Source of the DNA: a virus
Lineage: Duplodnaviria; Caudoviricetes
DNA: 64,000 bases
Strand: one strand, 5' to 3'
IMG/VR virus record: IMGVR_UViG_3300025715_000009
Coordinates: 160,001-224,000 of that record
Every line of letters starts with the position of its first letter. Position 1 is the first letter of the stretch. The notes beneath the pieces were generated by a model, which worked only from the letters and a program-made list of their open reading frames with translations, ran no database searches and had not been told where the DNA came from. The translations under genes were made by a program, and so were the position numbers. Shown one piece after another: positions 7,608 through 58,005 of this stretch.

Positions 7608-8428
7608 AAATAATTCTCCAATAATTTTGGATTTTTTTCTATATTAATAAGATCGCTTGTCAAAATAAGAACCAATCCAATTTCGTTTTTTGCTAAATCA
7701 ATTTTATCTTTTTGTAACTCATAAAAATAATTTGCTTTTGTATCTATATATTTATTTTCTATAATAAAATCTGGAGCATATCTTTCACCAGAAGATAGAA
7801 TTATTTGTTTATGATATAATTCCCATTTATAATTTAAATTATCAAGAATTTTTGCTAATCTTAATTCATATGTTCCTTGACATTTATGAATTTTACCGGT
7901 TTTATCAACAAATTCTATCCATTTACTTTTGCCACCCTTATTAATAAATTCTTTATATTTATTTACATCTTGATGGGCTTTTTTTAAACCAATACTTATT
8001 TTGTTTTTATATTCTTCTGTAAAGATTTTATTTTTTAACTTTAATTTTACATCCTCTCTTTGTGAATTATGTTCAACATTATATTTAGCCATTATACTTT
8101 TTTTCATTTTTTCTTTATCTTTAAGTATATAATCTATACCATATCTACTTAAATTAGTTTGTTTTATTTTTTCTTTAACAGAATTTAATTGAAAACAATT
8201 TATAACTCCATATTTTTTTAAAAAAGAACATTTTTTACAATAACAACCATTGTTACTCATAATACTTTTTTTATTAGTAATAATATCACATTCACAATCA
8301 AGACATTTTGTTTGAACTCTATCACGTTGTTTAATTTCTATTCCATTTAAAAATAAAGCTTTAAATTTTACGCCATTATAAATAGAATCTTTAATTTCTA
8401 TTTTTGGGCTAAATGGTATAGAAATCAT
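7595..8428 (-). CDS. Putative PD-(D/E)xK homing endonuclease with CxxC motifs and KYGV repeats
   Basis: CLDC and CKKC; KKYGV/SRYGI/AKYNV repeats; C-terminal YE...YAPDF...YIDTK; Lys-rich; free-standing. Confidence 0.75.
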   Translation of the reverse strand: MISIPFSPKIEIKDSIYNGVKFKALFLNGIEIKQRDRVQTKCLDCECDIITNKKSIMSNNGCYCKKCSFLKKYGVINCFQLNSVKEKIKQTNLSRYGIDYILKDKEKMKKSIMAKYNVEHNSQREDVKLKLKNKIFTEEYKNKISIGLKKAHQDVNKYKEFINKGGKSKWIEFVDKTGKIHKCQGTYELRLAKILDNLNYKWELYHKQIILSSGERYAPDFIIENKYIDTKANYFYELQKDKIDLAKNEIGLVLILTSDLINIEKNPKLLENYLWQI

Positions 8429-8733
8429 TTCACTTCTCCTATAAACTTAATTGGTGATGAAAAAATAGTTTTAATAATCAAATTATGATCCAACTTATTT
8501 AAATCCTTGTGCCAATTTTCATATATATTTCTAACTTGGTTTTGACCATGTAATTGATTAGATGTTATGGTCTTACCAGTTATATTACTATAATAACCAA
8601 AAAAATAATGTATTTCACATTCCAGCAATAAATTTGACCAATCAAATTTGGATATAGTAAAATATCCAAATTCTAATCCATCACTACTTTTCCAATAATA
8701 ATAAGCTTCACCTTTATAATTAGATGGAAACAT
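8425..8733 (-). CDS. Hypothetical protein (C-terminal IIKTIF motif)
   Basis: ORF track; co-oriented and tightly packed. Confidence 0.55.
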   Translation of the reverse strand: MFPSNYKGEAYYYWKSSDGLEFGYFTISKFDWSNLLLECEIHYFFGYYSNITGKTITSNQLHGQNQVRNIYENWHKDLNKLDHNLIIKTIFSSPIKFIGEVK

Positions 8734-8738
8734 ATTTA

Positions 8739-8909
8739 TTAAATTTCATCTCCAATTGTTGAAACATCATATTCAAGCATTTGATCTAAATTTGCCTTAA
8801 GCTTTTTAAGCTCGGTTTTAGAAAGAAAGATGCCCTGAACTAATGCTTCATTGTCTGAAAAATATACAAGATACTTTTCTTCATTTTTCTTTTCGATTTT
8901 GATTTTCAT
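8739..8909 (-). CDS. Small hypothetical protein (56 aa)
   Basis: Manual translation MKIKIEKKNEEKYLVYF...IGDEI; SD GAGG in the end of the upstream gene. Confidence 0.6.
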   Translation of the reverse strand: MKIKIEKKNEEKYLVYFSDNEALVQGIFLSKTELKKLKANLDQMLEYDVSTIGDEI

Positions 8910-8910
8910 T

Positions 8911-9204
8911 TTATTCCTCTTCTGGTGTAAAGGTTTTTCTCTTGAGAGATTTTACTTGAGATGTTCTTACGCCATAAGATGCTGATATCATATTAATGGC
9001 CATTTTAAGGGCTTTTTCCACTTGATTTGATTGAATTGCTGCAACCAACTCTTGTTTCATTTTATCATCAACATCAGATTGTTGAATTTGATTTACAAGA
9101 CCTGCTTTGAAATCATTTCCTAATTGTCTTTTTGCTGTAAGATTATCAGCAGCAAATTGTGATTCAGCAAGATCTATTTCTTTATTTAATTGTTTAAATT
9201 TCAT
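8911..9204 (-). CDS. Hypothetical protein, possible internal head protein
   Basis: N-terminus MKFKQLNKEIDLAE resembles a T4-type capsid targeting/cleavage leader. Confidence 0.5.
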   Translation of the reverse strand: MKFKQLNKEIDLAESQFAADNLTAKRQLGNDFKAGLVNQIQQSDVDDKMKQELVAAIQSNQVEKALKMAINMISASYGVRTSQVKSLKRKTFTPEEE

Positions 9205-9213
9205 ATTTGCCTC

Positions 9214-9693
9214 TTACTCTGTTGTATCAACTACTTCAATATCAAATTCTTTCTTAAATCTTGTTCCAGAAATACCAAGTATAATTGTTGCTTCACCTTC
9301 TGCAATAGCTGTAACTACAAATTTACCTTCATTTGCATCAACACCAGCTTCTACTGTTGCAACATCTTCATCAGAAGAAATGCAAGTAAAAGTATATGTC
9401 TTGTCTGTATTTGATGGGACGACTGCAGGTGTAATTAATGCTGATTGTAATCCACCACTCACCATATCAAATTCTGTTGCTGTAATACTACCATTTACTC
9501 CAGTAATTGGTCTATCAATATATTGAGTTGAATCGTAATCTCTTACACCATCATTTAACAAATCTGATGATTTAGATAATAAAGGATAGAATGCATGATC
9601 CTCTCCAAATCTCATATATTCTGGGTTTTTTCCATAAAATCTAACTAAACGAGCATAAGCTACTGGAACTTTATCGCCTTGAAAATCTGCCAT
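9214..9693 (-). CDS. Ig-like (Big_2) domain virion protein
   Basis: V.PSN.....F...SSDEDVATV....VTAIAEGEATI pattern; SD AGGAGG. Confidence 0.7.
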   Translation of the reverse strand: MADFQGDKVPVAYARLVRFYGKNPEYMRFGEDHAFYPLLSKSSDLLNDGVRDYDSTQYIDRPITGVNGSITATEFDMVSGGLQSALITPAVVPSNTDKTYTFTCISSDEDVATVEAGVDANEGKFVVTAIAEGEATIILGISGTRFKKEFDIEVVDTTE

Positions 9694-9704
9694 TCTAATC
9701 CTCC

Positions 9705-10031: not shown

Positions 10032-10045
10032 ATTATTCTCCTATA

Positions 10046-12112
10046 CTACCAATCTATTACTGACATATAACTAATGCGTGGTGCTGTGTTACCAGGATAT
10101 AAAACCTTAACAAGAATCATATATCCTGAATTGACTGTATAATTTGTTCCTAATGTAAATTGGAAATCACTTGTTGTTTGTATATCTCTATTTACCCAAC
10201 ACCCATCATCATCTGCTCCACTAAATGAAGAGAAGTTATAATCTCTTGTTAGGTCTAACCATCCAGTTTGAGATGGGGCTTTAATCCATACACGAACATC
10301 ACGATTATATAATTGTGTTTTTGTTATTCCTGTCATTCTTAATGTACCTGATGCATGTGATGAAGATGTATCTCTAAAAGCTCTTAAATAAACTTTATTT
10401 GTTTCAGATGCTATAAGAGAATAATCAGGGTTTCCACTTGGCATATAAGTAGAGAAATTCAATGTTGGGAAATAAAGTTCATCCATATAGAGTTGTAATC
10501 CAGCTCCATCATCATAAGTATCAAGAGATTGAGTACTATCCCATTGACCCGTTATTGTAGATGGAATTGAATTATATGCTAAATTTTGAAGACGATATTG
10601 TTCATCTCTGAAATGTTCAACCAAATCTGTAGATGCATTCCCATAAGACCAAATTAATATATTTTGTGATGCAGATTGAACTGCTGTATATGAACCATAT
10701 GGATCACGAGGTGTTGCAGTAATTCTTGCATTACTTGCCATTTGATTTGCTGCTTGACCTAAAGACCAATTTGATACTGACATTATTTCACCAATATCAG
10801 GGGGTGAAGAAACGCCAGATACAGCAACATTGTTATATGTTATTTCTGTTGATGACATTCCAGGCCACCCTGAAAATACTAAAGGAGCTCCTGATGAATG
10901 ATATACATTATCAAAAGCATCGCTTACAGTAACATCTACATCCCAAGTTGATCCTGTATCATAATATTTAACACCAGATAGATATTTAAATACTGGCGTA
11001 TCTTCTGTAATAATTGGTGTTGAAACAGATGGATTAGAGCCTGTATCTGTATCATAGAAAATATGAACTGATGCAGAAGTTTGTATCCCACCTTCTTGAG
11101 TTGATAATCCTTCATGTTTAATATAAATTTCACTATAACCTTGACGTAATAAAGCAGGATCAGTTATTTCTGCCCTTACTTGGAAACGTTGATAAAATTT
11201 AAAACCATTATGAGCTTGAACTGAAAGGACTTGGAAAGTACCTCCAGTAAATGTTACTACACCATTAGATATAACACTTCCTGTACCTTGAACATCATAT
11301 TCAGTTAAAATTTGAGATCCATCACGATTTGCAGGATTAAAATTTGCTCCTAAATCTATTGCAGCAATTACTGATCCATTGATATATAACTTGACTACAC
11401 CACGATCTCCATAATTAGAATAATTACCACCAGGGGTAGTAATTGTAAAAGTTGAATCTCTTGTTATGTAATTTACAACATCACCTGCAGGATCATCTGA
11501 TTTGTAATTTATATTAGATTGTGATAATCCACCAGTTACAAATGTAGTTCCAGCTACTGTAAGAGTTTGCCCATTCATAGAAAGAGGCGGATCTGGTGGA
11601 CCAATATAAGCCACATTTTTACCATTTTCAGTATCAATATATACATCATCTTCTGCTTGTACGAAAACAAGTTTTTCTATATTTTCTCCATATGGATCAT
11701 TATCATATTCTGTAACTACTAATGTTGATGTAGCTTGAGACCATTCAGCTGCTGTAGAATCCCAACGATAGAGAATTCCATTTTCACGAACAAGACGAAT
11801 GTCTCCATTTTCATTACCATTAATTGGAAGATTAGCAAAAGTAGCAACATTTGGTTTCCATTGATTTTTTAATGTCAATCTTTCAATAGCTATTGCTTTT
11901 GTAAAATCTCCAGTTGTATTACCGATATCAGTTGTAGAGAGAATCAATCCAGTAGCAGGGTTATCTGATAAATTAGTGACCATATCATCAGACAAATAAC
12001 CGTCAATATCATTAACATCAATTGTTATTGATTGACCATCTGCTATGACAATACCAAGATCATCAATGCTAACTTCTGCTCCTGTGCTGTTTTTAAGATA
12101 GTATTCAGCCAT
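10046..12112 (-). CDS. Virion structural protein
   Basis: N-terminus shared with 1210..4632; C-terminal ~500 aa shared with 22977..28025 (STDL.E.FRDE.YRL, TGWL.L, SGYMI). Confidence 0.7.
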   Translation of the reverse strand: MAEYYLKNSTGAEVSIDDLGIVIADGQSITIDVNDIDGYLSDDMVTNLSDNPATGLILSTTDIGNTTGDFTKAIAIERLTLKNQWKPNVATFANLPINGNENGDIRLVRENGILYRWDSTAAEWSQATSTLVVTEYDNDPYGENIEKLVFVQAEDDVYIDTENGKNVAYIGPPDPPLSMNGQTLTVAGTTFVTGGLSQSNINYKSDDPAGDVVNYITRDSTFTITTPGGNYSNYGDRGVVKLYINGSVIAAIDLGANFNPANRDGSQILTEYDVQGTGSVISNGVVTFTGGTFQVLSVQAHNGFKFYQRFQVRAEITDPALLRQGYSEIYIKHEGLSTQEGGIQTSASVHIFYDTDTGSNPSVSTPIITEDTPVFKYLSGVKYYDTGSTWDVDVTVSDAFDNVYHSSGAPLVFSGWPGMSSTEITYNNVAVSGVSSPPDIGEIMSVSNWSLGQAANQMASNARITATPRDPYGSYTAVQSASQNILIWSYGNASTDLVEHFRDEQYRLQNLAYNSIPSTITGQWDSTQSLDTYDDGAGLQLYMDELYFPTLNFSTYMPSGNPDYSLIASETNKVYLRAFRDTSSSHASGTLRMTGITKTQLYNRDVRVWIKAPSQTGWLDLTRDYNFSSFSGADDDGCWVNRDIQTTSDFQFTLGTNYTVNSGYMILVKVLYPGNTAPRISYMSVIDW

Positions 12113-12191: not shown

Positions 12192-12611
12192 TTATGACAG
12201 ATTTAATTTTGATATGATTTGTTTAAAATCTTGAAATTCAAAAATTATTTTTAATGTTTTATGTAAATTTTTTTTATAAGATACTTCCAAATTACCATAT
12301 TTTAATATTAAAATAAATATATCAACTAAATCTTTTTCTGAAAAATTTTCAACATTTTCCTGAAATGTCTTGTATGGTGTTTCTCTAAATGGTGGATCAA
12401 AATATTTTTGAGTGTTTATTCTTAAATTGGCTTTATTTTTAATAAGATATTTAGCTATTTCCGCCCCATCTTTATGTTTGCCAGTTAGACAATAAAACAA
12501 TAAAGTTCTACCATAACTATCTCTTGTATTAATATCAATATGATCAGAGATAATTAAACTTAAAACATCTTGTAGTTGACCCTTAGCCAACATTCTGTTT
12601 ATTTCAACCAT
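12192..12611 (-). CDS. Ankyrin-repeat protein
   Basis: DINTRDSYGRTLLFY...EIAKYLIKNKAN ankyrin pattern; C-terminal TLKIIF. Confidence 0.75.
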   Translation of the reverse strand: MVEINRMLAKGQLQDVLSLIISDHIDINTRDSYGRTLLFYCLTGKHKDGAEIAKYLIKNKANLRINTQKYFDPPFRETPYKTFQENVENFSEKDLVDIFILILKYGNLEVSYKKNLHKTLKIIFEFQDFKQIISKLNLS

Positions 12612-12614: not shown

Positions 12615-12836
12615 TTATAATTCACCAATTTTTGCTGTAAAGATATATTTAATAAATTTTCTCAGATGTTGCTTTTTAGCTGGAATATAATCAAATACTC
12701 TTATTCTATCATAAGATAAATAATCTATTTCTAATTTATTAATATCTTTGTCATATAATATAATTATACTAATAGGTTTAACATGTAAAAAGAGGCACTC
12801 AAAAGTATATTTAGTTCTTTTAGCGTAATTCCACAT
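12615..12836 (-). CDS. Small hypothetical protein, tandem paralogue of 12843..13064
   Basis: Both begin MWNY and share ECLFL.VKPISII.LYD and AKKQHLRKFIKYIFTA.IGE. Confidence 0.7.
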   Translation of the reverse strand: MWNYAKRTKYTFECLFLHVKPISIIILYDKDINKLEIDYLSYDRIRVFDYIPAKKQHLRKFIKYIFTAKIGEL

Positions 12837-12842: not shown

Positions 12843-13064
12843 TTATATCTCACCAATTTCTGCTGTAAAGATATATTTAATGAATTTTCTTAAATGTTGT
12901 TTTTTAGCAGAAGTAAATTCTCTTATTACTACTAAATCATATTTTTTATGTCGTATTTCGAGTATATTAAATTTTTCATCATATAATAATATTATACTAA
13001 TTGGTTTAACGTTTAAAAAGAGACATTCGTATTTATATTTATTTCCTGGTGTATAATTCCACAT
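12843..13064 (-). CDS. Small hypothetical protein, tandem paralogue of 12615..12836
   Basis: Start moved to MWNY (13064); the longer ORF would cross a terminator. Confidence 0.7.
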   Translation of the reverse strand: MWNYTPGNKYKYECLFLNVKPISIILLYDEKFNILEIRHKKYDLVVIREFTSAKKQHLRKFIKYIFTAEIGEI

Positions 13065-13124: not shown

Positions 13125-13394
13125 TTATACTTTATTGCCTTGTAATAATATCTTGGCAGCTATATTTGGTTCAGGATCAATTAAAATTCCACCTTTTAAC
13201 CAATCACAAAAATCATCCATTTTCATCTCTTGTTGGTTTACATATTGTCCATCTTTGCTAACACGACAAACAACATAAAGATCATTTTCATCTCCATCTT
13301 TAGGAGCGTATTTTGTTACATCGATAACACGGATGACATCTGCTCCATCAAAAACAACTGGAGGCATTGTAACTTGAAACATTCTTCCAATCAT
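13125..13394 (-). CDS. Hypothetical protein (C-terminal AAKILL)
   Basis: ORF track; SD GAGG. Confidence 0.6.
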   Translation of the reverse strand: MIGRMFQVTMPPVVFDGADVIRVIDVTKYAPKDGDENDLYVVCRVSKDGQYVNQQEMKMDDFCDWLKGGILIDPEPNIAAKILLQGNKV

Positions 13395-13396: not shown

Positions 13397-13699
13397 TTAC
13401 CTCTTCATTTGTAATCTAAATTTTGCTTCATCGCTTATATTATCAAATTTTACTAAATAAATTCTATTCTTTTTTTTACTATCTATTAAAAATCCTTGAA
13501 GTGATATTTGTCCAATGAATTGTAAGTTTATATCATAATTATCTATGAGAAAAAATAATGTATCTTGTATCATTCCAACATCTAAAATATGATAATATCT
13601 ACTAAAAGAAGAAGTCATAGTATCAAATGATAATGAATCATATAAAATATCATTTGGGCGTATATCTTCTACTGATTTTATTTCAATTAACTCAGACAT
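13397..13699 (-). CDS. Hypothetical protein (C-terminal EAKFRL)
   Basis: ORF track; overlaps the topoisomerase stop. Confidence 0.55.
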   Translation of the reverse strand: MSELIEIKSVEDIRPNDILYDSLSFDTMTSSFSRYYHILDVGMIQDTLFFLIDNYDINLQFIGQISLQGFLIDSKKKNRIYLVKFDNISDEAKFRLQMKR

Positions 13700-15455
13700 T
13701 TGGATATTTTTTATAAAAATCTGACTCTACATCCTTGGCCCATTCAAAACGAGCTTGTACTGATGGAGTATAAAGGCGCTTGATATCTACATTATTATCC
13801 TTACACCAACTAATACCAATCCTCGGATCAGAATAATTCAGTTTAGATGTACCAAGAGCAACGCCCTTGGTTTTTTCTTTCATATCAATTTTAGATTGAA
13901 GGTCATTAATTCTTTCTTCGAGCTTATTTAGCTTTTTAGTAAGAGCTTCCTCTTTCTTTTTATATGTTTCTTTAGCTCTCCTTATACTATCTTTTTTTCT
14001 ATCACCAGTATACTTCTCAGCAAAGGAGATACGCTTATCTCTTTCTTGTTTGAGAAGATCAAGCTCTTGTTTGAGAGATGCCTTAATATTTTTAAATTCA
14101 TTTTTATATGTCTTAAGCTTATCCTTCATGTTCTGCAGAGAGCGTTCATATGCTTCAGAAACAGCAGATTGGTGATTAAGCTTAAGAGCAACTTCTAAAT
14201 TGGCATTAACATAATACTCAAGTTTTTTCTTCTCAGAAAGAGAAGAATTGATTTTTTGAGCTTGTAATTCCTTGGCTAGAAGAACAGAGCCGGTAGCTGT
14301 TCTAAATTGTTTCGCAGTGAGACCAGGAAGTACCATACCCAAGAATTCATTGACATCAGAACTTGTAATTGAATCAAAAACTTGTTCACTTTTTCCTTTA
14401 CCATTAATAAACTCCTCTATATTACGAATTGCATTAATATGCAAATTCTCTACACGATTATGGTAGCGAATGCTATCTTTGCCAAGAAAATCAAAAACAA
14501 CTGCTGTCCCATCAACTTGAATATGCTCTACTCTCAGAGTAGTAGCACCCACGGTATCAGCTTCGTCTTCATCTTTTTCATCTCCTACACGAATACTCAT
14601 TTTGGCAATGAGCTCGCAGACAGTTGCAATTTGACGAGTAGAACGATCACGAGATGCAAGTTTCTTTTCAATAAATGAATTTACTTTATCAAAGTTATTT
14701 GCCAGCTCTATTGCCTTGGCAAATTTCTTTTCAGCTGATTTGTGAGATACAATAGAAGTAGCAGAAAAGAGGATTGGTTTAAATTTGCCAGTAAGAGGAC
14801 AATACCACCCAGCAGTAAAAAGACTATTTTGATTCTCTTCTACCCTCTTCCAAGAATGACCTTCAGGAGGAGAAGGAGGGTTAAGATTGAGAGAGTGGTT
14901 AATTATAACATCTTCAGGGGCGATTGCTCTTTTCCATGAACCACGAAGAGGATGATTACCTCTCCCAAGGAAAAGGCCAGCAGGTTCAACCACATAATTA
15001 CCAAGAGGAACTTTTTGACCATCAAGTTCAGCAAAACCATGAATAGCTTTTAGCTCTTCTCTCTTCCTCTTCTCTTCTTCTTTTACCTCTTTCCCAATCT
15101 GCTTTTTTTCATCTCTTTGAGCAATATAAATTCGTCGTAGTTTAGTAAAATCCCAGTCTTCAGGAAACTTAGATTTCTTTATCTCTTCATAATCAAGGTA
15201 GTTGTTAAGAGTAGAATTAGCAAGACCATCAGAAAATGTTTTGATAAAGTCTTTAAAAAAATTCTTTTGAAAAGTTTTGTCTTTTACATATGGTGTTTCA
15301 AATTTAGCAACCCAAGCCCATGCCATTTCTTCTTGTTTGGAAGTGAAAACAAATTCTTTATCAAACAGCTTAAAACAGGCACCCTTAAACTGATAAGGTT
15401 TAGGGAATACAGGGCCATTATGTTTAAGTGTTTTCCATTTTTCTGCCATATTCAT
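13692..15455 (-). CDS. DNA topoisomerase IB, long (eukaryote/archaea-like) form
   Basis: KWKTLKHNGPVFP; EPAGLFLGRGNHP; catalytic R (IRVGDEK), K (FLGKDSI), R (TAKQFRT), H (LNHQ), coiled-coil linker, Y in GTSKLNYSDPRI. Confidence 0.95.
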   Translation of the reverse strand: MNMAEKWKTLKHNGPVFPKPYQFKGACFKLFDKEFVFTSKQEEMAWAWVAKFETPYVKDKTFQKNFFKDFIKTFSDGLANSTLNNYLDYEEIKKSKFPEDWDFTKLRRIYIAQRDEKKQIGKEVKEEEKRKREELKAIHGFAELDGQKVPLGNYVVEPAGLFLGRGNHPLRGSWKRAIAPEDVIINHSLNLNPPSPPEGHSWKRVEENQNSLFTAGWYCPLTGKFKPILFSATSIVSHKSAEKKFAKAIELANNFDKVNSFIEKKLASRDRSTRQIATVCELIAKMSIRVGDEKDEDEADTVGATTLRVEHIQVDGTAVVFDFLGKDSIRYHNRVENLHINAIRNIEEFINGKGKSEQVFDSITSSDVNEFLGMVLPGLTAKQFRTATGSVLLAKELQAQKINSSLSEKKKLEYYVNANLEVALKLNHQSAVSEAYERSLQNMKDKLKTYKNEFKNIKASLKQELDLLKQERDKRISFAEKYTGDRKKDSIRRAKETYKKKEEALTKKLNKLEERINDLQSKIDMKEKTKGVALGTSKLNYSDPRIGISWCKDNNVDIKRLYTPSVQARFEWAKDVESDFYKKYPNV

Positions 15456-15470: not shown

Positions 15471-16019
15471 TTAATTCTCTAAATTAAGTAATAGTTTGGC
15501 TGCTCTTGCTTGCAAACGATCAAAATCATCAATGAATAAAAATATATCATAACTCCAATGGCCATAACTCCCACTACCAGACCCTGTGTTTAATGGTATA
15601 GGATATATATTATTTTTATAACTAGGAAGATATTCTCCTTTACTTGTATAAGTTTTTCCACTTATCCTGCCTCTATATCCAGGATAACCAAATGGGAGTT
15701 CAGGTTTATTATGCCAGTTTGTTGGTTTTCCTACTGGAGCATGATGACTATTAGACACCTCTGGATTAAATGTGACATCAAGAGATATATCATCAATATG
15801 GTCATCATACATTTCTTTAAGAAAATCATTTATCACTTCAAGATAGTTATCTAAATCAAAGTTTTTATAAAATTTTGCAACTGCATTTGCATAATTATTT
15901 TTTCTAAATTCTTCTAAAGCAGCTTCTTTTCTACAAATATCTTCATGCTCAAAAGCTTTTTTTATATTAGAGAATTTCTTTTTACAGTACTCACATTGAT
16001 AATGCTCAACTATAATCAT
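15471..16019 (-). CDS. Zinc-finger phage protein (C-terminal AAKLLL)
   Basis: YQCEYC...HEDIC finger; VSNSHHAP..GYPGYRGRI motif. Confidence 0.6.
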   Translation of the reverse strand: MIIVEHYQCEYCKKKFSNIKKAFEHEDICRKEAALEEFRKNNYANAVAKFYKNFDLDNYLEVINDFLKEMYDDHIDDISLDVTFNPEVSNSHHAPVGKPTNWHNKPELPFGYPGYRGRISGKTYTSKGEYLPSYKNNIYPIPLNTGSGSGSYGHWSYDIFLFIDDFDRLQARAAKLLLNLEN

Positions 16020-20507: not shown

Positions 20508-20849
20508 TTATTTAATATGTTTTAATATCAAATCAATAATATTAGTCATGCTTGGGTGATAAGCTATAAAATGAAATTCATCATCATTTTCTCGTATTGT
20601 TTTAACTTCCCAGTTGAAAGACTTATACTCTTCTTCTACTTCCCCCATTCTCTCAACCATAAGATCAAAGGCTGATTCACCTTCATCTTCTTCATCGTAA
20701 AAATCTCCTACTTCAAAATTGAAATAATTTCCAAGATTATAATCATCAAAAGTATAATAACTTAATTTATATCCACTAAATATATCCTTGATTAACATTT
20801 GATAATTTGATTCATGTGGTAAATTTAAGTTTTCTTTTCTAACATACAT
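20508..20849 (-). CDS. Acidic hypothetical protein
   Basis: ORF track. Confidence 0.5.
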   Translation of the reverse strand: MYVRKENLNLPHESNYQMLIKDIFSGYKLSYYTFDDYNLGNYFNFEVGDFYDEEDEGESAFDLMVERMGEVEEEYKSFNWEVKTIRENDDEFHFIAYHPSMTNIIDLILKHIK

Positions 20850-32812: not shown

Positions 32813-33097
32813 TTATACTATTTCTAAAGTTCCTGTTTCTATGTTTTTTTCTATCATATATTCTAGAACTAATTTATAAATATTATCAATTACTGATAAA
32901 TTAATATTTGGTTTTGATAATAGAATTTCATTAAATTTAGATTCATTGGAATTAATAGTAAATGTTTTTTCAAATAAAGTCAAAGAATCATTTTTAACTT
33001 CATAAGTTACAGCAATAGAATTATCATACAAAAATAAATTTTTGATAAAAACTTTATTATAATTTCTATATGGCAATGAAAGTTGTATATAAATCAT
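32813..33097 (-). CDS. Small protein, possible fibre assembly chaperone
   Basis: Position between fibre genes; SD GGAG. Confidence 0.4.
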   Translation of the reverse strand: MIYIQLSLPYRNYNKVFIKNLFLYDNSIAVTYEVKNDSLTLFEKTFTINSNESKFNEILLSKPNINLSVIDNIYKLVLEYMIEKNIETGTLEIV

Positions 33098-51800: not shown

Positions 51801-54099
51801 AATCTGACAAGAAGTTAATTGCAGCAGCAGTTTTATCAGCAACATTAATTGCTGTATCATTTTTATTAATTAAAACGGAAACACCGGTTTTAGTTGCTAA
51901 TTGTGGATATAATGGAAGACCACTTCCTGGAGAAGATTCTACCAATTTGGGATCAAGAGAATCACCAACACCATTAAGGTCTGTATCAACATTCATCCAA
52001 ACATAATAATCAGTAAATGGAGAATTTATAAGAAAATATTTTCCAGACAAAGAACCATTTACATCGGCAGCACAAGTTATATCTGTAATTTCTATTCCTG
52101 TATTATCTATCTCTTCTAATTGTGCTCCATCTATTTGAAGTGGTGTATTAGATTCACAATTAATATAATATTTCAAATATTTTGCATCATTAGAAGATAC
52201 CCTAAATGATAGTTCTGGTCTTATCCACGTGTTGATATTGCTTGAATCTATTGCCCAATTTTCTTCACTAAGTGTGATAATTTCATCATTTGCATTATAC
52301 TCAGCAATTCCAATTGTAGAATTTTGTGGAGCAACTGATTTTAAGAAAACAGAAAAATTATAAATTCTATTTCTTGAATTTGGCTCTAAAAGATATGTTT
52401 GCCAGACAGTAGCCTTAGAAGCAGAAACATATTTTGTAAGTACACCTTTATAATTACCCCATCTATCAGTATTAGAATTACCAGAAGAGGCTGTCATCTT
52501 GAATGTAGAAAGCATTGGGATGAGATTGTCAGTTATATTCCAGTTTGTAGGAGTATCTCCAGGAACGCCTGTTTCAAATGATCCGTTTTTTGAGAGATTA
52601 AAAATATTTTTATTGATAGATGTATCAATTATAATATTTCCTCTTGTTCTCTCTAATGTTGTAATTGTTTTTACAAGTGGATTTCCTGCTTGGTCTTTTA
52701 TTGTTGTATTTAAATCTAATGCAGTAAATGTCCAATTAAACATATCGTCTTCATCTATAACTTCACTTAAACGTTGATCAGAATGCCAAAGTGTTGTTTC
52801 ACCAGCAATCCAAATTTGATCATTCCATTCATACATAGATATAATGTTTTGATCAGTGCTAAATAATCCGAGTGTTTTTACAGCAGCCTCAGGAAATGTA
52901 TTAGTTAAATCAATTGCTCTAATAAAACCATTTGTTCCGAATACAAATAAATGATTTTTAAATCTCTTTATGCCAGTGTTAATAAATGTGGTTGATCCAC
53001 TGCTAATATCTTTTTGTTGCAATTGTATTGATACAGCGGATTTATAATATAGGTACTTTGTCTGTGTAGATCTAAGAATAAAATAGATATTATCATTAGA
53101 ATCAACATATAGATCTTGAATATCAGCATTAGAATCTAAAAGATTTTCTGCTACTGACCATTGAATGTCGTTAAAGAAGATACCATCTGTTATAACTTCA
53201 TATTCTTTTTCACCAGTTGTTAAATTTGTTGTAAATCTATTTTTTTCTAAGAATTTATCTTTTATTTCAATATCTTTTTTTATTTCGACATTAGATACAT
53301 ATGTTCCTGGAATTGTTTGACCTTCATCAGTTGGACATTTTAACCAATAGCCTTCACTACTCTGACCAAAATTGATATCATTTTGGAAGTTAACAACTTC
53401 ATTAGTAGATGCTTTTGAATCTGCTTTTAATGGTGTTATTTCTTCCCAATCTCTATATGTTTTATATACTAAAACTCTATCGTCTTGACTTGGATTAGTT
53501 GTTGATTTATTAGTAATTTTTATTTCATAAGACTCAAAATTATCCGGGAGATTTTCAGATATTGTTGTATAAACAACTCTATATTCACCAAAATAATTAT
53601 CATCTTTAAGATCAGTAAAGGCAACTCCATCTTCATATTCAGGGAAAAGAAGTGAATCATCTTCTCGCAAGAAATATAATATTTTTTGATTTCCAATACG
53701 AGTAACTTTACCATTTATAATAGAAGAGCCAGAATTAACTCTAAGAGGTGTTATAAATATTTCAGAGGATGGAACTTCAGGGTCAGTATAATAATCTTGT
53801 GTTTGTATGTCAAGTGAAAATTCGTTATATTTATTTTTAAAAACACCATGATCTACTTCAGAAGCAACATCAGAAATGTTTTTATCTAATATAACATCAT
53901 TCTCTACCAAGTTTTTGAGTGGTCTATTATCTGTAGAAGCAACAACTTCATCTTCTTCAATATAAGCCTCTACACCAGGACCAATAATTTCTCCATTGAT
54001 ATCATAGGCCAATCCTTTAGTATTTGGATTGTCTCTATCACTATGATCTGGATATGGATTTCCTATTGAACCCGTGCTCCATTTTTTGATAACGCTCAT
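39832..54099 (-). CDS. Giant (4755 aa) baseplate-associated fibre protein
   Basis: N-terminal NRPLKNL..ND anchor; three CBM-like N...N..F...D..QLE domains; beta-helix (FVDPISGLDTNNG...FKTV); LamG-like domains; coiled coils; C-terminal H.LGT repeats. Confidence 0.8.
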   Translation of the reverse strand: MSVIKKWSTGSIGNPYPDHSDRDNPNTKGLAYDINGEIIGPGVEAYIEEDEVVASTDNRPLKNLVENDVILDKNISDVASEVDHGVFKNKYNEFSLDIQTQDYYTDPEVPSSEIFITPLRVNSGSSIINGKVTRIGNQKILYFLREDDSLLFPEYEDGVAFTDLKDDNYFGEYRVVYTTISENLPDNFESYEIKITNKSTTNPSQDDRVLVYKTYRDWEEITPLKADSKASTNEVVNFQNDINFGQSSEGYWLKCPTDEGQTIPGTYVSNVEIKKDIEIKDKFLEKNRFTTNLTTGEKEYEVITDGIFFNDIQWSVAENLLDSNADIQDLYVDSNDNIYFILRSTQTKYLYYKSAVSIQLQQKDISSGSTTFINTGIKRFKNHLFVFGTNGFIRAIDLTNTFPEAAVKTLGLFSTDQNIISMYEWNDQIWIAGETTLWHSDQRLSEVIDEDDMFNWTFTALDLNTTIKDQAGNPLVKTITTLERTRGNIIIDTSINKNIFNLSKNGSFETGVPGDTPTNWNITDNLIPMLSTFKMTASSGNSNTDRWGNYKGVLTKYVSASKATVWQTYLLEPNSRNRIYNFSVFLKSVAPQNSTIGIAEYNANDEIITLSEENWAIDSSNINTWIRPELSFRVSSNDAKYLKYYINCESNTPLQIDGAQLEEIDNTGIEITDITCAADVNGSLSGKYFLINSPFTDYYVWMNVDTDLNGVGDSLDPKLVESSPGSGLPLYPQLATKTGVSVLINKNDTAINVADKTAAAINFLSDFVAYRIQNTIKVQVKTDLPGEVVDAEAGTLGPEGFSINVAIQGLYQASQYVENYEYLFIGFEKQPNNTQDPPFAFIDIKNPTGPQAIKYVNGKYGKIKRVNAALHDDSNRMFVADDKRIYSLVFLNNYTTYDRFTLVDIGEKESDLDFTKNIYKFESIAKFNDRILFGGTVDNRVIKAKYKDDANDHTIEFKPATDDSEQLLDLLGENIFVYSNGVDSASREFTRIEHCYEVIDPNGDTTLGYYKPNERYGFEVWVDGKKDGEQITIISPKEDSGPWTIQQIYEAIKTIYSGAKLEWLDPRGQDSISPDFDWKIPESSSIKTDGFYSIGRKDLTKHIRGNVHKIFIPENQTKKFYIIRGKQIFQSKYDPNVLKNSSGFYPDTPIIKGTVLTEELLPKSLNSSNVGDIWHVLDKAYYQWLGDHWVEIPYYTKWKIYDDVVLTKYKHIDNVEKTFGDTSINKVWIDLPIDPGYNLLKGSVRLKTNTVAEVGFTEGEDYFVDYTNNKIIRSDTDNLLSNPDFSYFQSAIQKFGYVYKGQKSLKSELPVNGMVLNDAWFVSNESTYYRCINPSGSTIETIWEKFYNDNVPTSWDLHLLNGNEIETRFKQTKDLYDDRNDITEFVLQPETSGEEIGLIYQVKDVDFASDTYTLSLDLKSYNYSKAIIRISECDNSNVNNFGYNKSSNSFTDTVFRSSVLIKEIGEFNNFEDVEDYDKWHRLSLSHEVQDSRTTKLRVEIYSLTTGQLLVDKVQLEKNASATPFIEGSRFSRIDPNMHVWADFVEYQEMEKGIDYSFDTNTRKITIHETISDNEYFYFQYKYEKIFNAYDFGNSKPITTIIYDPRDDYFLLRPEGRIWAINQMFAMLSLEIQDPIKVSYNYHYPRIDQIKIRNTPDRFGNFIYIVRGRSAYDNPYKPYDPGVGTGIRESKQYYNGVEIYEIEDNTNNDVLYEINVVDNDYQINDIYDRRIYIDARDNLNFNISLLPETLAYFPFKKDFNSTNGLTPLNFIQNSKIIPIIKNYSVIQLEEIGAWHDGYQLGLRTKFTYPGTSFSVFVDPISGLDTNNGRSETTAFKTVKKALDALYYNDTDDYVTNIIITQPANITENIEIDKPFTVSIVAKSYCNWLGSIQNITKLNLQGIYFKNTSLYPYNELSIYYCTFENTSLNCVSPQKINIYNSEARYNHNSLIRVKNILYPSPFIHPYMKSSERDDGITGTPLSVATSDNESIAPGDVFTNIVQQSASYTFQNCLIHNSTDHIVEFDPEPNWSGSFGFDFCTIADNNGLFATPKYDLIINYSNSILFNNNEVLGDQAKPFNTNSSVNFDTCFIDFPNFSTGVGEYTNFNYRSGDLLGRESCIYSEGVGGSPQFIGEDDYHLKSIAKGSTSDSPALEQGRGGLDLGCYAEIRQQTEKDIPRKLKNYTAYIDEAIRYAMAINSEKITVTLEFKPAGSVANSGILFDTRVADDNEDYIVLAYNNNALDNHSVEPDPTNSPTDPYHFRVIVANKEKSYSIISPIDITSDEEYQKWHRLSFTINYEKIINSKPQFDEYNKLQNIIIFYHNDQESIESFVKYDLSRYTNGKLIPGRGDDGNNAWNYNDITKYITIGAAFDGSNKMTGYYDEFRIDNRFIDRKQFELWNVKKVQFNDPVSYVNQIPLARTLDPRTLQEYWSLKGDSDLGAKKNRFLPETNKRMTWEDGYQAWFIGNPTENILQNSNFSGNHNALAQTTVIDYTTPLVLESNWRIKTYESRLISDNTGITINVVNPDLPQYSAAAGYQDLGLNITDFNASSGVGAGEFVFDIDINGQPTERHTIELEADPGYQELTFSSSITGSSPTPLNPSGVETEYDLQYTLYPGSTVVDKTVKLEGTKEITDITVVGDLGYLKNKFFEISSLRDETQYYVWFSDGTYLDGGSRDPAGQKQTTVITVNLNWDIPGYTSWEGKGFTIYKNDGTAVNIWIDVSTVSGSTPDFGNTGSYLPLNLTYSVLGPEVLRNEIANRIVTLLSPISDFNIQRVDNVITITNTQNATLSLAEDHDSIGIFTITTTKVGAAPDTNLASPSTKTGVEVVIASGDNQDAILTKVATAFPVTKMTATKHNGQAETTTITALSNNILDYDSKYFTIMSNDQYGNDRLYYVWFDANQAGVEQVTEITCSADDTTSNDPNLMLNEKFFTISGGGNEHYFWYNVANDGRDPGINQPAVQEQFTLEFTDTIKLKEDYEGKYFELSTPTGDYYVYYTVNNQSVTLPPSDKNRIKVDLDSSITGVDQRIAIIEKTIAVLTAQVSGFTNDSMIRNYNSEGEYTARFIIPAGATSLESSNGTFGSDMIFSLKVKGKNYRAKTYLGSGIGHMVEIAANESANDVASLTNSRINSVIDFNSTVLNNILTVTNAVKESVSPPDFSYINFTGSVITSGIKPTTNPSPSGYTGIKVEIDGLVTKEEIADAIRTTVNTAAEFNASGTGAVVEIVTTDDTHYISDPSIGTLNGVITLAVNYQGKLPYVRFTNIENGAVNINPRSGTAGARYLIFQEGSNANTTFASLVNKLNVVTSGDLIWSIVNGKLRATTTARGDTASVEINPTCELLDALDATTQTKQYGTPVDDRWDIILSKLNNLNLGISWNKVGLDIRAISNFEGTNSGVKFTDTTETNDLLTAIGVNYSTLPAAFDGYARVTISNQYELEKMMYAAFEGINTRITWGIRNGRLMFLTDDFVASSIEVDFKEDVGVINPIQVISGLKQVGVPGSEIWDISVVLETPLNNTVSFNLNPKYNKFSENSLVVEKMSTVPLYITQRKFLQENTKYTLSAYIHSDDRITSNHLQCKITNEEKNWTKIEKLDDNWWRVIYTFINEYAGDYNIGFVIKEVDRIYIDSVQLEAKTFASPFVESTNNTIGRIKIGKSLLNKERGTIFFKFKPYFEYENNETKTIISLPAYDAGIVNQSLGLKVIYYFDSDKNRGIFEYSINNDSSSIWRFETTDDFFNQWHSIGFVYDYINNRFVYWFDYFNYIIDSPFANNIWADMYIGYDTSTEKAADIVVKDVIIHDYTTTDSEVLNWNTTYEFYNESFISSNIEEMKNEILGIKQDTYEYVDITNDIVNTVNSLQSRVAEYEENEINNDNAISKLKNFTGYAWPFNQDSSSLPSGVGNHENRITTLEATALNLDIKTTSIQNNLINTNNAVNTLDGNIDTLSDGLNNEINARVIADQQIKDLYASTDINKGAALIGVYDVGARYSATTVEDILQEIAGAGRTTESLKSLKDDITAIGSSTSTSLEDLDYMQDGNSGLWTRSLAQSSGYNIYNIKTNLTALDIEVESIKDNQTSVAESYQDILTGFVDADDTALSSNGDYSLIINGGEYYFTTSSIITWEDLIINYLPNAIHTTSGLPLSLSYRIEAISYIDGVNTLYNIRIFDKTDYTLGHAINIQSGISYLDLISSLGATLSSATAIGSSFIASTMNNVTLSSRITQEVNDRQATVNALRTDLLSQDLNRGASLIGVEGNGLFIETTVEDVLQELAGPGRNASMTVAGNYNAIQGMISDISTLQTNTSSNSSSISNINNTLGLMKDGIDGSTWNALATKPNLMNHESRITTNTQNISSANVAIAVNSNDIFNLNQSVGALSTGLSTEINNRVNGDLSIRQDLASTTVGKGASLISIQDVAGKYTATTVEGALAEVDDKIAALAGALSWQSPVNTYADLPTSGNTVGNARTVLDDGDGRQAQYVWSGTAWVKIADIDWGQASDISYNNTTSTIPATTVQAAIDYVYLNQKDKTSSQGEILNTAWQVGSGQYNGYYYADVNHGLGTTDVVCLITENGIVIGVEEIERLDANNVRIYVADNSLNLDITVFGVIDKYSKVVSQWTPDGQGGYYADIVHNFNTNKLMVSTFDIDTTLGLGWLTGAESIEFIDLNTIRVKTADNATTMNVFIVKKANNSITKDIQKWTWDPTKNAYISLIQVDASYDAVFTFFDPSTGKTVGIDMVQLENGVLTLARSQNDIIRMIIVK

Positions 54100-54434
54100 T
54101 CTTTTTCCTCCGACTCTTTAAATATTATCTTTATAACTGCTTGATTATTCATTGCATTTTCTCTTTTTACTCTTGCTTGTTTATTATATTTGATTGCTAT
54201 ATCTTTTAATAATTTTAAAATATATCTTATTTTTGAATCTGTATTACTTAGCATAGCATATTCTGATTTAAGATGAAAAAGCATGTTATATCCACCTTGG
54301 CTTAAATATATTTCTCTCATTCTTAAATCACCAAAATTAGTTATTTCTTTTGTTTTATTTATTTCATCATAAAATGAATTAAATTGTTGAACTATCTCTT
54401 GAGACGCTTCTGTTATTAGATTTTTAAATTTCAT
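54096..54434 (-). CDS. Hypothetical protein, possible internal head protein
   Basis: N-terminus MKFKNLITEA resembles the T4 capsid targeting sequence. Confidence 0.5.
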   Translation of the reverse strand: MKFKNLITEASQEIVQQFNSFYDEINKTKEITNFGDLRMREIYLSQGGYNMLFHLKSEYAMLSNTDSKIRYILKLLKDIAIKYNKQARVKRENAMNNQAVIKIIFKESEEKE

Positions 54435-54951: not shown

Positions 54952-55209
54952 TTAAGAATCATTTTTTGTCATTATTCTAATAATTAATTCTCTACGTTGT
55001 TTTTTATTTTTTGAATCAAAAACTCTTTTAGATGATACATAATATGCTATTCTTTCAATTGTATTATTATCATAACCTGGAGATACATAAAATATTTTAT
55101 AGTTTTTAAGTTGTATACCCAAACTCTTATCTACAAAATCATCAAATGTTAAAATAACACCTTTAAAATAATCTACAGTGTCATCAAATAATATATAATA
55201 GAACCTCAT
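54952..55209 (-). CDS. Hypothetical protein (C-terminal LIIRIM)
   Basis: ATGA coupling. Confidence 0.55.
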   Translation of the reverse strand: MRFYYILFDDTVDYFKGVILTFDDFVDKSLGIQLKNYKIFYVSPGYDNNTIERIAYYVSSKRVFDSKNKKQRRELIIRIMTKNDS

Positions 55210-55781
55210 ATCAACTCCAACTTGGGAAATTCTATTTGTTTACCAAATTCTACACCATTATTCTCCAAATATAATCTTGTATTCTTTTCACAAATTATTC
55301 TTATGATTTTCTCTGCTATTTTTGGGCTTATTTTTTGCCCATTGCTTTTTTTTATCATTCTTGGTTCTTCGTTTAACAAGCCCCAATTGCTTGGTAATTT
55401 ATCCTCTGAAATCATATTATCTGGTGCTATAATATATCTATATGTTGATAATTTTAGTAATGATTCATCTAATAATTTTGTGCTTTTATCTCTTGTTTTC
55501 TTTAACTGTTTAATATATTTTTCTTTATCACAATCTATTTTAAACTGCTCTTTTAATAATTGAATTTTGGTTTTTATATCATCAGGATTATTTAATTCTC
55601 GAGTATAATCTTTTATATCTTGTTTGGCCTCTATGATGAAAACTCTTGAGCCATCTGTTCCAATTACATCAAAAATATATTTACCTATTTTTACTTCAGT
55701 AGAAATATATTGACATTCAGCATTTAAATATAGCCACTCTATTGCTTTCATCTTAAGGACTTCATGATTATGGGTTGCCAT
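55206..55781 (-). CDS. PD-(D/E)xK nuclease, MmcB-like
   Basis: H..LK..A..WL, TEV, DVIG, IEAK...DY, Y.YIIAP..I....LP..WGLL. Confidence 0.7.
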   Translation of the reverse strand: MATHNHEVLKMKAIEWLYLNAECQYISTEVKIGKYIFDVIGTDGSRVFIIEAKQDIKDYTRELNNPDDIKTKIQLLKEQFKIDCDKEKYIKQLKKTRDKSTKLLDESLLKLSTYRYIIAPDNMISEDKLPSNWGLLNEEPRMIKKSNGQKISPKIAEKIIRIICEKNTRLYLENNGVEFGKQIEFPKLELI

Positions 55782-56031
55782 ATAGATAATCCTTGATTAC
55801 TTTATCATCTTTATATAACCTATGAATATATAGCGAGCCATCTTTTTTCCACAGTTTATATTCACCATCATAATTTTTATTTTTATAAAAACAATGCATA
55901 ACTAAACTGCCATTTTCATGCCATTCTTTATATTCACCCTCACTCTTATATCCACTAAACCATAGGCCATTCATCATTGCTCTTTGAGGATTATTAAATA
56001 AATAAACTATTTGTTCATGCATTACATTCAT
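55768..56031 (-). CDS. MORN-variant repeat protein (array member 4)
   Basis: Two GEYK.W...G.L units. Confidence 0.8.
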   Translation of the reverse strand: MNVMHEQIVYLFNNPQRAMMNGLWFSGYKSEGEYKEWHENGSLVMHCFYKNKNYDGEYKLWKKDGSLYIHRLYKDDKVIKDYLYGNP

Positions 56032-56357
56032 TTTAAATAATCCTTGACCACTTCACCATCTTTAAATAAATAATGTTTATATAATTTTCCATTATCAAAC
56101 CATGATTTATATTTGCCATCTTTTTCACCTTGTTTATAAAAACAATGTACCCATAATTGCCCATTTTCGTGCCATCTTTTATATTCACCATCTAATTCAT
56201 CATTTTTATAAAAGCAATGTCTTGTTAATTGCCCATTTTTATACCATTCTTTATATTCACCCTCACTCTTATAACCACTAAACCATAAACCATTCATCAT
56301 TGCTCTTTGAGGATTAGTAAATAAATCTTTTATTTGCTCTCTGGCTATATATTTCAT
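56028..56357 (-). CDS. MORN-variant repeat protein (array member 3)
   Basis: Three G.YK.W..NG.L units. Confidence 0.8.
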   Translation of the reverse strand: MKYIAREQIKDLFTNPQRAMMNGLWFSGYKSEGEYKEWYKNGQLTRHCFYKNDELDGEYKRWHENGQLWVHCFYKQGEKDGKYKSWFDNGKLYKHYLFKDGEVVKDYLK

Positions 56358-56539
56358 TCTAAATAATCCTTGATTACTTTACCATCTTTAAATAAATAAT
56401 GTTGTGTTAATTTACCTTTTTTATCCCATAATTTATATTCACCATTATACTCATAGCCACTAAACCATAAACCTATTATAAATATTGTTTTTTGAGGATT
56501 ATTAAATAAATCTACTATCTGTTTACGCATTATATTCAT
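56354..56539 (-). CDS. MORN-variant repeat protein (array member 2)
   Basis: One GEYKLW...G.L unit. Confidence 0.75.
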   Translation of the reverse strand: MNIMRKQIVDLFNNPQKTIFIIGLWFSGYEYNGEYKLWDKKGKLTQHYLFKDGKVIKDYLE

Positions 56540-56790
56540 TCTAAATAATCCTTGACTATTTCACCATTTTTATATAAATAATGTCTATATAATTTTCCAT
56601 TTTTATACCATGATTTATATTCACCTTCCATATTACCATTTTTATTAAAAAAACAATGTTCCCATAATTGACCATTTTCATACCATGATTTATATTCACC
56701 TTCCCACTTATATCCACTATAAAATAAACCATTGGTTATTGTTTTTTGAGGATTAGTAAATAAGTCTATTATCTGCTTATGCATTATCAT
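56536..56790 (-). CDS. MORN-variant repeat protein (array member 1)
   Basis: Two GEYKSWY.NG.L units. Confidence 0.8.
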   Translation of the reverse strand: MIMHKQIIDLFTNPQKTITNGLFYSGYKWEGEYKSWYENGQLWEHCFFNKNGNMEGEYKSWYKNGKLYRHYLYKNGEIVKDYLE

Positions 56791-57016
56791 ATATAGCCTT
56801 TATAAAAAACCTTTTATCATCATCTGAACAATTATAATCTACTTTTACATCAAAATTTCTAATAAATAATTTTAAATTTCCATCGTTTAAAAATACTAAT
56901 TTATTATCACCGATGAAATTATATATCATAATATAATGATCTTTGGAATTTTTAACTATTATACCATGCTTTTTATCTGTTATTATTGGTTTATACAAAT
57001 AATCACTTAGGTTCAT
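56777..57016 (-). CDS. Hypothetical protein (C-terminal FIKAIY)
   Basis: ORF track; overlaps both neighbours. Confidence 0.55.
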   Translation of the reverse strand: MNLSDYLYKPIITDKKHGIIVKNSKDHYIMIYNFIGDNKLVFLNDGNLKLFIRNFDVKVDYNCSDDDKRFFIKAIYDNA

Positions 57017-57209
57017 TTTCCCATTCTCTTAATAAAGCATATAAATCTTCTTTATTCTTAACCGCAGGTTGAAAATCATTGAGAATAATATATCCAATCA
57101 TTCTATGATAACCTTGTTCACTCTCCTCTTTTTGAATAATCAAGGCTTTATCTAATTGTTCAGAAGTAATTATTCCTCTTTGAACTAAAAATTCTCCAAA
57201 TTTTGCCAT
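57003..57209 (-). CDS. Stand-alone MshEN (c-di-GMP-binding type) protein
   Basis: KFGEFLVQRGIITSEQLDKALIIQ matches RLGxxLLxxGLIxxxxLxxALxxQ; partial second motif RMIGYIIL; SD AGGAG. Confidence 0.75.
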   Translation of the reverse strand: MAKFGEFLVQRGIITSEQLDKALIIQKEESEQGYHRMIGYIILNDFQPAVKNKEDLYALLREWENEPK

Positions 57210-57252
57210 TTCCTACTCCTATAGTAGTAATATATTTATTCTATATTTATAC

Positions 57253-57299
57253 GTTCACCATGTGAACTCCAGAGTTCATGTAGTGAACAGCTCTGTTCA
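57253..57299. repeat. 21-bp-periodic array of alternating GTTCA/TGAAC half-sites
   Basis: GTTCA at 57253, 57274, 57295; TGAAC at 57263, 57284. Confidence 0.85.
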
Positions 57300-57479
57300 T
57301 TTAATAAACAGCCTTATAGTATATCCTTGAAATTTTTCAAACAATAATTTAATAATTTTTTTATATGGAAGGGCCTCATAATAGTTATCATTAATTCTTT
57401 TTTTATATATATTGCATAATCCATTTGGCATGTGTTTGAGTAAACCTGCTTGATTATATGTTATATAATATTCATCCAT
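57297..57479 (-). CDS. Small hypothetical protein (IIKLLF motif)
   Basis: ORF track. Confidence 0.5.
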   Translation of the reverse strand: MDEYYITYNQAGLLKHMPNGLCNIYKKRINDNYYEALPYKKIIKLLFEKFQGYTIRLFIK

Positions 57480-57484
57480 GTCTA

Positions 57485-57739
57485 TTACCCAAAAGTAGAA
57501 ATTTCTGCCAAAAACAATGCTTTAACAATTTCATACTTATGTTCTGTATCCTCTTCTAATGATGCAAATATATGGTCAGGCATTGGTCTATATTTATATA
57601 AATAAAGATTATATAAACTACTACCATCTGAATAATGTTCAATGCTCAAATACCATTTACACATATAATTTTTTTCTTCTTTAATAGAGTAAACTACTAT
57701 ATGTTTTAAGCGTGTCTCATTGGTAAAAAATCTTATCAT
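57485..57739 (-). CDS. Hypothetical protein (IVKALF motif)
   Basis: TAATG coupling. Confidence 0.55.
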   Translation of the reverse strand: MIRFFTNETRLKHIVVYSIKEEKNYMCKWYLSIEHYSDGSSLYNLYLYKYRPMPDHIFASLEEDTEHKYEIVKALFLAEISTFG

Positions 57740-58005
57740 TATTCTACATCCTCAAATTTTACTTCACTTTCAAAAATTTTAATAATACAATCTTGAGGAT
57801 ATACTCTGCTATTATATTCAACTGCTGAATTTTCTAATTTTTTCTTCATATTGCCAAAATAAATAGTGTCTTTAAAAAAATTTGGATATAAGATTATACC
57901 ATAATAAGAAAAATGATTGTTATCTAATCTCTTTAAAGGACAAAAAAGAGTATAACCATAAGTGTGATATTCATCTTCAAAAGTATACCAATTATATAAT
58001 TCCAT
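57739..58005 (-). CDS. Hypothetical protein (CIIKIF motif)
   Basis: First gene after a terminator and AAAGATAA. Confidence 0.55.
   Translation of the reverse strand: MELYNWYTFEDEYHTYGYTLFCPLKRLDNNHFSYYGIILYPNFFKDTIYFGNMKKKLENSAVEYNSRVYPQDCIIKIFESEVKFEDVE

Follow-up and report, generated by a model that had tools for sequence, protein, structure and literature searches.

A recurrent I-K-x-I-F peptide at the termini of small proteins in a 388-kb phage, a possible portable docking tag

We describe a short hydrophobic peptide, here called tag A, that recurs near the termini of many small proteins encoded by a large phage (Duplodnaviria; Caudoviricetes; IMG/VR record IMGVR_UViG_3300025715_000009). 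The stretch under study, hereafter the window, comprises 64,000 nucleotides and corresponds to bases 160001-224000 of a contig of 388,268 bp (29.7% GC), which was analyzed in full. Tag A has the consensus [K/R]-x-[I/F/V]-I-K-x-[I/L]-F, often with Glu as the next residue, and was found at a terminus in 55 of ~604 predicted proteins, about one in eleven and mostly small. It exists, it sits at termini and it is kept across the clade of this 388-kb phage. A second tag built on the same template, tag B (A-K-x-L-L), was found on 44 other proteins. The best reading of both is that they would serve as portable docking peptides, to which we assign a probability of roughly one half. A search of the published literature found no description of such a tag.

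Open reading frames (ORFs) were called crudely over the whole contig (first ATG, at least 45 amino acids [aa], greedy non-overlap), which gave 604 ORFs, ~86% of them on the minus strand. The C-terminal ends are independent of the start choice because stop codons fix them. A strict pattern for tag A, [ILVFMC][ILV]K.[ILVA][FY], matched 54 times genome-wide, and 36 of these matches lay at most 25 residues from the C-terminus, compared with 2.9 ± 1.7 in composition-preserving shuffles and 7.1 predicted by the overall density. With Gln permitted at position 0, the first of the hexapeptide, the N-terminal, C-terminal and internal copies numbered 20, 36 and 14, the expected values being 3.7, 3.3 and 14.1, respectively. 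When 75,739 gapped patterns in a reduced alphabet were scanned without bias, tag A ranked first for C-terminal enrichment (66 vs 107 internal, p=1.4e-16), and the next patterns derived from the C-terminus of a MORN family described below. These data bore out the shared C-terminal hIKxIF peptide proposed in a preliminary description of the window, all nine of whose quoted peptides (9/9) were present in the ORFs named. The enrichment at termini held against both composition-matched shuffles and internal positions, and AT-rich composition does not explain it.

Single-position swaps gave a marked preference at several sites. Position 2 was Lys 35 times, Asp 6, His 6 and Arg 3 times; Phe was found 30 times at position 5 and Ile 27 times at position 1. 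Leu was nearly missing from position 0, though proteome-wide it matches Ile in frequency. Glu directly followed the Phe in 8 of 28 independent carriers (p=5e-4 vs background). A basic residue (H/K/R) had been said usually to precede the motif, and this held weakly, with Lys or Arg at position -2 in 52% of carriers.

The peptide was also conserved beyond the 388-kb phage. In the 14 members of the family of ORF 54096, N-N-Q-A-V-I-K-I-I-F-K is invariant, and the tail that follows is variable in sequence and in length (6 to 27 residues). Orthologues in a sister phage (G006, a 178-kb contig), at ~30% identity, kept the hydrophobic positions and not always the Lys. G006 has five further tag A carriers without a homologue in the 388-kb phage, and one of its ORFans (L048, G006 36744-37034) ends with tandem copies, CIKIIF and, ten residues on, FIKEIY. 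Tag A was counted 8 times vs 2.75 expected in G006 and 5 vs 1.5 in another relative, G002 (40.6% GC), and tag B 13 vs 0.8 and 27 vs 0.9, respectively. There was no excess of tag A in the first 94 kb of T4 (1 vs 0.55 expected), and phage G001 (50% GC) had 0 copies.

An indication of portability came from the MORN-repeat proteins and from tag B. Four tandem MORN-repeat genes occupy positions 55768..56790 (-) of the window, each encoding an N-terminal Q-I-x-x-L-F (55996-56013, 56319-56336, 56504-56521 and 56758-56775, all minus strand) and a C-terminal [VI][VI]KDYL. All four fall in one BLAST cluster of 30 paralogues genome-wide, one member of which, outside the window, matched Pfam MORN_2 at 1e-4; searching the PDB with the sequence of a MORN protein yielded no useful match. 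The QIxxLF reported at the head of all four proteins is indeed present in the four, but these copies are not independent cases because they were inherited within one 30-member family. Among the 30 paralogues, 23 begin with a sequence of the tag A type (Q-I-K-x-L-F) and 7 with one of the tag B type (A-K-x-L-L-L), at the identical position. Tag B itself had 22 N-terminal, 22 C-terminal and 15 internal copies, compared with 1.3, 1.1 and 6.8 expected. The two tags never occurred together in one protein (0 vs 4.0 expected by chance for 55 A and 44 B carriers), and 90 of 396 small genes bear one or the other. Tag A is thus portable between bodies and between ends: the same MORN body accepts alternative tags and the same tag is found at either end of unrelated bodies, which favors a portable module. 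A fold-specific structural element would predict neither, and the odds of a tag are raised accordingly.

Tag A would work by binding. In such a scheme, a short invariable handle would link small, rapidly evolving proteins of many kinds to one partner that they share; two sites or two partners would then be served by the two flavors of tag. A bolder version, possible and held here only tentatively, is a two-letter protein address code in this clade, whereby ~100 proteins with I-K-x-I-F or A-K-x-L-L would be recognized and sorted as groups by a dedicated reader or a pair of them; conceivable destinations are the prohead, a compartment and a timed protease. To our knowledge, proteome-scale tagging of this kind is undescribed for any phage. 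The adaptor system put forward in the preliminary description is supported in part: a constant tag that moves between proteins does exist, and the hub and mechanism are hypothetical.

The nearest T4-type precedent for a short interchangeable C-terminal peptide that links unrelated proteins to one hub is found in T4 gp43, gp55 and gp33, whose interchangeable hydrophobic C-terminal epitopes are read by the sliding clamp (PMC2988020). T4 gp43 ends with SLDFLFG and T4 gp55 with SLDFLYEAND, so that these epitopes have, like tag A, the spacing hydrophobic, polar, x, Leu, Phe/Tyr, followed by acidic residues. Variants with Asp at position 2 in the 388-kb phage (ILDFIF, ILDYLF) resemble them as well. 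They differ in having three or four carriers instead of ~55, in having Asp and not Lys at position 2 (Lys 35 and Asp 6 in tag A), in being C-terminal, whereas tag A is also N-terminal, and in having a clamp, none being detected in the 388-kb phage. The bacterial beta-clamp-binding motif is another relative in form, reportedly given as QL[SD]LF by Dalrymple et al. in 2001. It shares with tag A the terminal penta- or hexapeptide ending in Leu-Phe, and the N-terminal Q-I-K-x-L-F of the MORN proteins resembles its hexapeptide form, but Gln occupied position 0 in 0 of 36 C-terminal copies and only in the N-terminal MORN ones. In Hda, the beta-clamp motif is likewise placed N-terminally.

Two other systems were compared. 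The T-even capsid targeting sequence, a short terminal peptide as tag A is, directs proteins that are not related to a single structure, and the 388-kb phage shares with the phages that use it a portal like gp20 and a prohead protease like gp21 (PF03420, 5.5e-22; genome 52696-53151). A Glu after Ile/Leu-Phe would form an (I/L)-x-E site, which we take to be of the kind that gp21 cuts; such a Glu was present in only 8 of 28 independent carriers. The T-even sequence is N-terminal and starts with MKTYQEFIAE, a start that no protein of the 388-kb phage has, and a T4-type capsid targeting leader (MKT[YF]xEF type) was rejected as the loose pattern matched one protein, unlike the T4 leader. The poxvirus ankyrin/PRANC (F-box-like) adaptors also combine a variable binding domain with a constant C-terminal docking element. 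The 388-kb phage has a single ankyrin protein, in which the tag copy is atypical and Pfam gave Ank_4, Ank_2 and Ank and no PRANC or F-box; we know of no cullin-type hub in bacteria. The analogy drawn with poxvirus ankyrin/F-box proteins was not upheld, since it rests on this single protein, where Thr occupies position 0 and the copy is perhaps an ankyrin helix.

Several results weigh against the docking interpretation. Pfam searches and phmmer searches with T4 proteins detected no PolB, gp45, DnaN or clamp loader. PF02916, PF00712, PF02768 and PF13177 had no match in the phage, and phmmer with T4 gp45, gp44 and gp62 returned nothing significant, although a very divergent or host-encoded clamp could escape such a search. 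PHROG scans of ten replication-region proteins found no clamp either. The DnaE polymerase has no tag-like segment, and its segment aligned to the QADMF of the Escherichia coli enzyme reads SSYKLLV. On the strength of these searches the sliding clamp was rejected as the hub, and the single phage hub that had been postulated was not identified. Furthermore, the excess of tag A in the relatives is modest and weaker than in the 388-kb phage. The AlphaFold2 model of the ORF 54096 family (pLDDT 79.5) has the motif as the last strand of the protein's own beta-sheet, where it pairs with the strand before it. Lastly, carriers lay in tandem arrays and were adjacent about three times more often than expected (13 vs 4.4; 15 vs 4.9 for A-A neighbors), they were rich in Tyr, with Tyr at residues 2-6 in 19 of 33 compared with 83 of 333 other small proteins, and their motif-trimmed bodies were marginally more alike than controls in phmmer and Smith-Waterman score distributions.

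The strand, the adjacency, the Tyr-rich composition and the slight likeness of the bodies are also what favors the main rival, common descent. According to it, the carriers would be one or a few hyper-diverged, tandem-expanded families whose terminal strand or helix is the sole recognizable remnant, with no external reader. The relatedness of the carriers was examined from several sides. BLAST found two pairs of paralogues only among 45 loosely defined carriers, and no Pfam or PHROG family was common to the carriers (all 36 small ones were searched). Hidden Markov model (HMM) iteration with body-shuffled decoys, which again speaks for descent, united four carriers with one orthologue in a single family and linked another carrier to three Asp-variant paralogues ending in F-F-D-x-[IV]-F; the remaining carriers stayed single. 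Homologue searches of billions of proteins returned only close orthologues in the same clade, and a profile search with one sub-family against 1.84 billion representatives gave its own members plus two Big_3-repeat surface proteins (E ~1e-5), a weak lead. Simple paralogy was rejected, as BLAST, phmmer on trimmed bodies, Smith-Waterman and HMM iteration gave only small sub-families. After collapsing paralogues and removing three false friends (a ligase, a 688-aa structural-region protein and one MORN end), at least 29 independent tag A families were left, among which no similarity was detected. The ligase copy, IIKHIY, is not a tag because it is ligase motif VI, the conserved RFP-h-h-K-x-h-[YF]...GR[DE] of ligase orthologues, kept in all five relatives with the region (Pfam DNA_ligase_A_M).

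Descent would have to account for a tag at the N- or the C-terminus of differing bodies, for a MORN body that bears either tag, for an 801-aa helicase that also has tag A near its C-terminus, for the majority of carriers, which remained singletons in decoy-controlled profile searches, and for homologue searches that found only close orthologues of the same clade. On balance we regard it as rather unlikely, although it fares best of the alternatives. The preliminary description had held that the rest of these proteins do not align; this stands for a constant peptide on mostly unalignable small proteins, and it has to be tempered by two small sub-families, the tandem arrays and the Tyr-rich composition.

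The conformation of the peptide bears on the same question. The copy in the ORF 54096 family, with Ile as x, may be an ordinary buried strand according to the model, and a Foldseek search with this model found no match below E=0.01 in PDB and BFVD. The model of a second family, that of genome ORF 41082, was unreliable (pLDDT 48), with the tag region unstructured. The favored residues, Ile, Val and Phe, point to an extended conformation; a helix is suggested by the spacing (i, i+1, i+4, i+5) and by tag B, whose surroundings are clearly helical. The claim that the constant motif is a helix was thus not sustained, as the sole confident model has a beta-strand and the other is unreliable.

Neighboring carriers tended to have the same tag: A-A pairs were found 15 times vs 4.9 expected and B-B pairs 14 vs 3.1, and A-B pairs were not enriched (6 vs 8.1), for which reason an A-B operon pairing was rejected. 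This pattern, along with some proteins bearing two tandem copies, would suit a self-association zipper, A with A and B with B, through which co-expressed neighbors would hetero-oligomerize without a separate hub. We consider it improbable: a core of six residues offers little length for a stable contact between helices, and tandem duplication accounts equally for the adjacency.

Still less probable is a membrane-targeting amphipathic helix of the MinD type, in which case the "hub" would be the inner membrane. The resemblance is close, since the C-terminus of E. coli MinD is KKGFLKRLFGG, where FLKRLF fits the strict pattern, including a Lys at -2. This sequence is a known transplantable lipid-binding helix (PMC8155659). 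However, the tag A carriers are far less cationic, with a net charge over positions -3 to +7 averaging +1.1 vs +4 for MinD, and their interfacial free energy is less favorable (+1.6 vs +0.4 kcal/mol). The Glu after the Phe in 8 of 28 independent carriers, the tail of up to 24 residues after the tag, and Ile being preferred over Leu, Phe and Trp at positions 0, 1 and 4, unlike in a selection for lipid partitioning, argue in the same direction.

We have also considered whether the conserved unit is DNA and the peptide a by-product, arising from the initiation region or promoter of a downstream gene inside the 3' end of the upstream one. Within the last 30 codons, the three sense frames contained 36 (coding), 7 and 0 matches. 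The wobble positions and the entire x codon varied freely, and the start codon of the following gene lay anywhere from 10 to 176 nt from the Lys codon. Selection keeps tag A at the protein level, because the matches are confined to the coding frame, wobble and x codons are free and the distance to the next start is variable; the N-terminal copies argue likewise. A nucleotide constraint was nonetheless visible in a subset. Where the tag ended at most 3 residues from the stop, x was Asp, Glu, Gly or Arg in 9 of 14 copies, compared with 6 of 45 otherwise (p=4e-4), and the Lys-x codons formed an AAGGA-type ribosome-binding site 13-17 nt before the overlapping ATG of the next gene. MORN gene junctions are alike: the genes end with GTC AAG GAT TAT TTA GAA TGA, the next ATG overlapping the stop, and an AAGGA ribosome-binding site is contained in the codons for Lys and Asp. 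Such a constraint shapes x in these copies and does not create the tag; as an origin for it, this explanation is largely refuted and very improbable. A chance by-product of AT-rich codon usage would suit a genome of 29.7% GC, with Lys at 9.1% and Ile at 8.8% of residues, but it is refuted: the excess was not reproduced by composition-preserving shuffles, internal positions, other frames or the T4 control (34.6% GC).

The upstream regions of the carriers were distinguished only slightly. That most carriers lack a Shine-Dalgarno sequence and that several lie downstream of AAGATAA motifs both held weakly: AGGAG was present within 25 nt upstream in 4 of 52 carriers vs 82 of 344 other small genes (p=0.007), and AAGATAA in 9 of 52 vs 28 of 344 (p=0.04). 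In the 60 nt that precede start codons, AAGATAA is enriched six-fold; it lies upstream of 81 genes, in many cases downstream of a hairpin and only 3-10 nt from the ATG. It is a candidate phage promoter with very short leaders.

In the window, C-terminal copies of tag A, all on the minus strand, were found in the following ORFs. IIKTIF (8461..8478) lies 11 residues before the stop of a 102-aa ORFan (ORF 8425-8733). FIKYIF occurs twice, at 12639..12656 in ORF 12615-12836 (73 aa) and at 12867..12884 in ORF 12843-13064 (73 aa from the first ATG); these two proteins are paralogues, 63% identical, and a search of 5.8 billion proteins with the former gave only self-clusters. VIKIIF (54120..54137; ORF 54096-54434, 112 aa) had been overlooked in the preliminary description. 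FIKAIY (56789..56806) belongs to the 79-aa ORF 56777-57016, whose sister-phage orthologue has a degenerate FVKRAM at the tag site, IIKLLF (57339..57356) to the 60-aa ORF 57297-57479 and IVKALF (57512..57529) to the 84-aa ORF 57485-57739. TLKIIF (12240..12257, minus strand), in the ankyrin-repeat protein 12192-12611, is a doubtful copy with Thr at position 0 that could be an ordinary ankyrin helix. Two of the quoted examples do not follow the core shared by the other seven (IIKTIF, TLKIIF, FIKYIF twice, FIKAIY, IIKLLF and IVKALF): CIIKIF (57772..57789, minus strand; ORF 57739-58005) is one residue off register and was excluded from the strict count, and LIIRIM (54970..54987, minus strand; ORF 54952-55209) has no Lys and ends with Met.

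N-terminal copies of tag A in the window are LIKDIF, residues 19-24 of ORF 20508..20849 (-), and FIKNLF, residues 17-22 of ORF 32813..33097 (-). Tag B occurs as AKILL near the C-terminus of ORF 13125..13394 (-) and in ORFs 15471-16019, 16021-16293 and 20104-20463, all on the minus strand. The LVKVLY located 16 residues from the end of the 688-aa structural-region protein (10046..12112, minus strand) was taken as a chance match.

The head genes of the phage are T4-like and comprise a T4-type large terminase, the gp21-type prohead protease and a gp20-type portal. The portal gene (L004:3607-6570, minus strand; genome 54604-57570) is split by the intein, which bears the HNH endonuclease. The replication genes are mixed: gp41-like helicase, UvsX, gp46/47, gp32 and primase are present, yet the polymerase is a DnaE-type Pol III alpha (PF07733, 4.9e-71; L028, genome 373123-377268, minus strand). 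A gene for a GTPase of the tubulin/FtsZ family (PF00091, 3.4e-9; L001:7145-8182, minus strand; genome 7142-8182) adjoins those for the primase and the gp41-like helicase. The window also encodes a full-length eukaryotic-type topoisomerase IB (13692-15455, minus strand), an enzyme uncommon in phage, which matched Pfam Topoisom_I_N (6e-54), Topoisom_I (1.5e-62) and Topo_C_assoc (2e-24). A 4755-aa ORF (39832-54099, minus strand) had no Pfam match at E≤0.001. Finally, the phage encodes a set of signaling proteins, namely a hybrid histidine kinase that includes PAS and a periplasmic binding domain, a response regulator-HD fusion and a multi-PAS protein, at L004:7388-10624, L019:10149-11111 and L001:8560-9972, all on the minus strand.

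Most genes of large phages are small ORFans to which no function can be assigned. If ~55 proteins, or ~100 with tag B, share a handle, finding its reader would give many ORFans a common context at once. Should the carriers instead be one hyper-diverged family united by six residues, a less daring interpretation, this too would bear on the origin of phage ORFans. Were the docking interpretation true, proteome-wide addressing by short motifs, familiar from eukaryotes, would also exist in phages, and the tag could be transplanted for cargo delivery in cells infected by phage, a use to which the capsid targeting sequence of T4 has been put.

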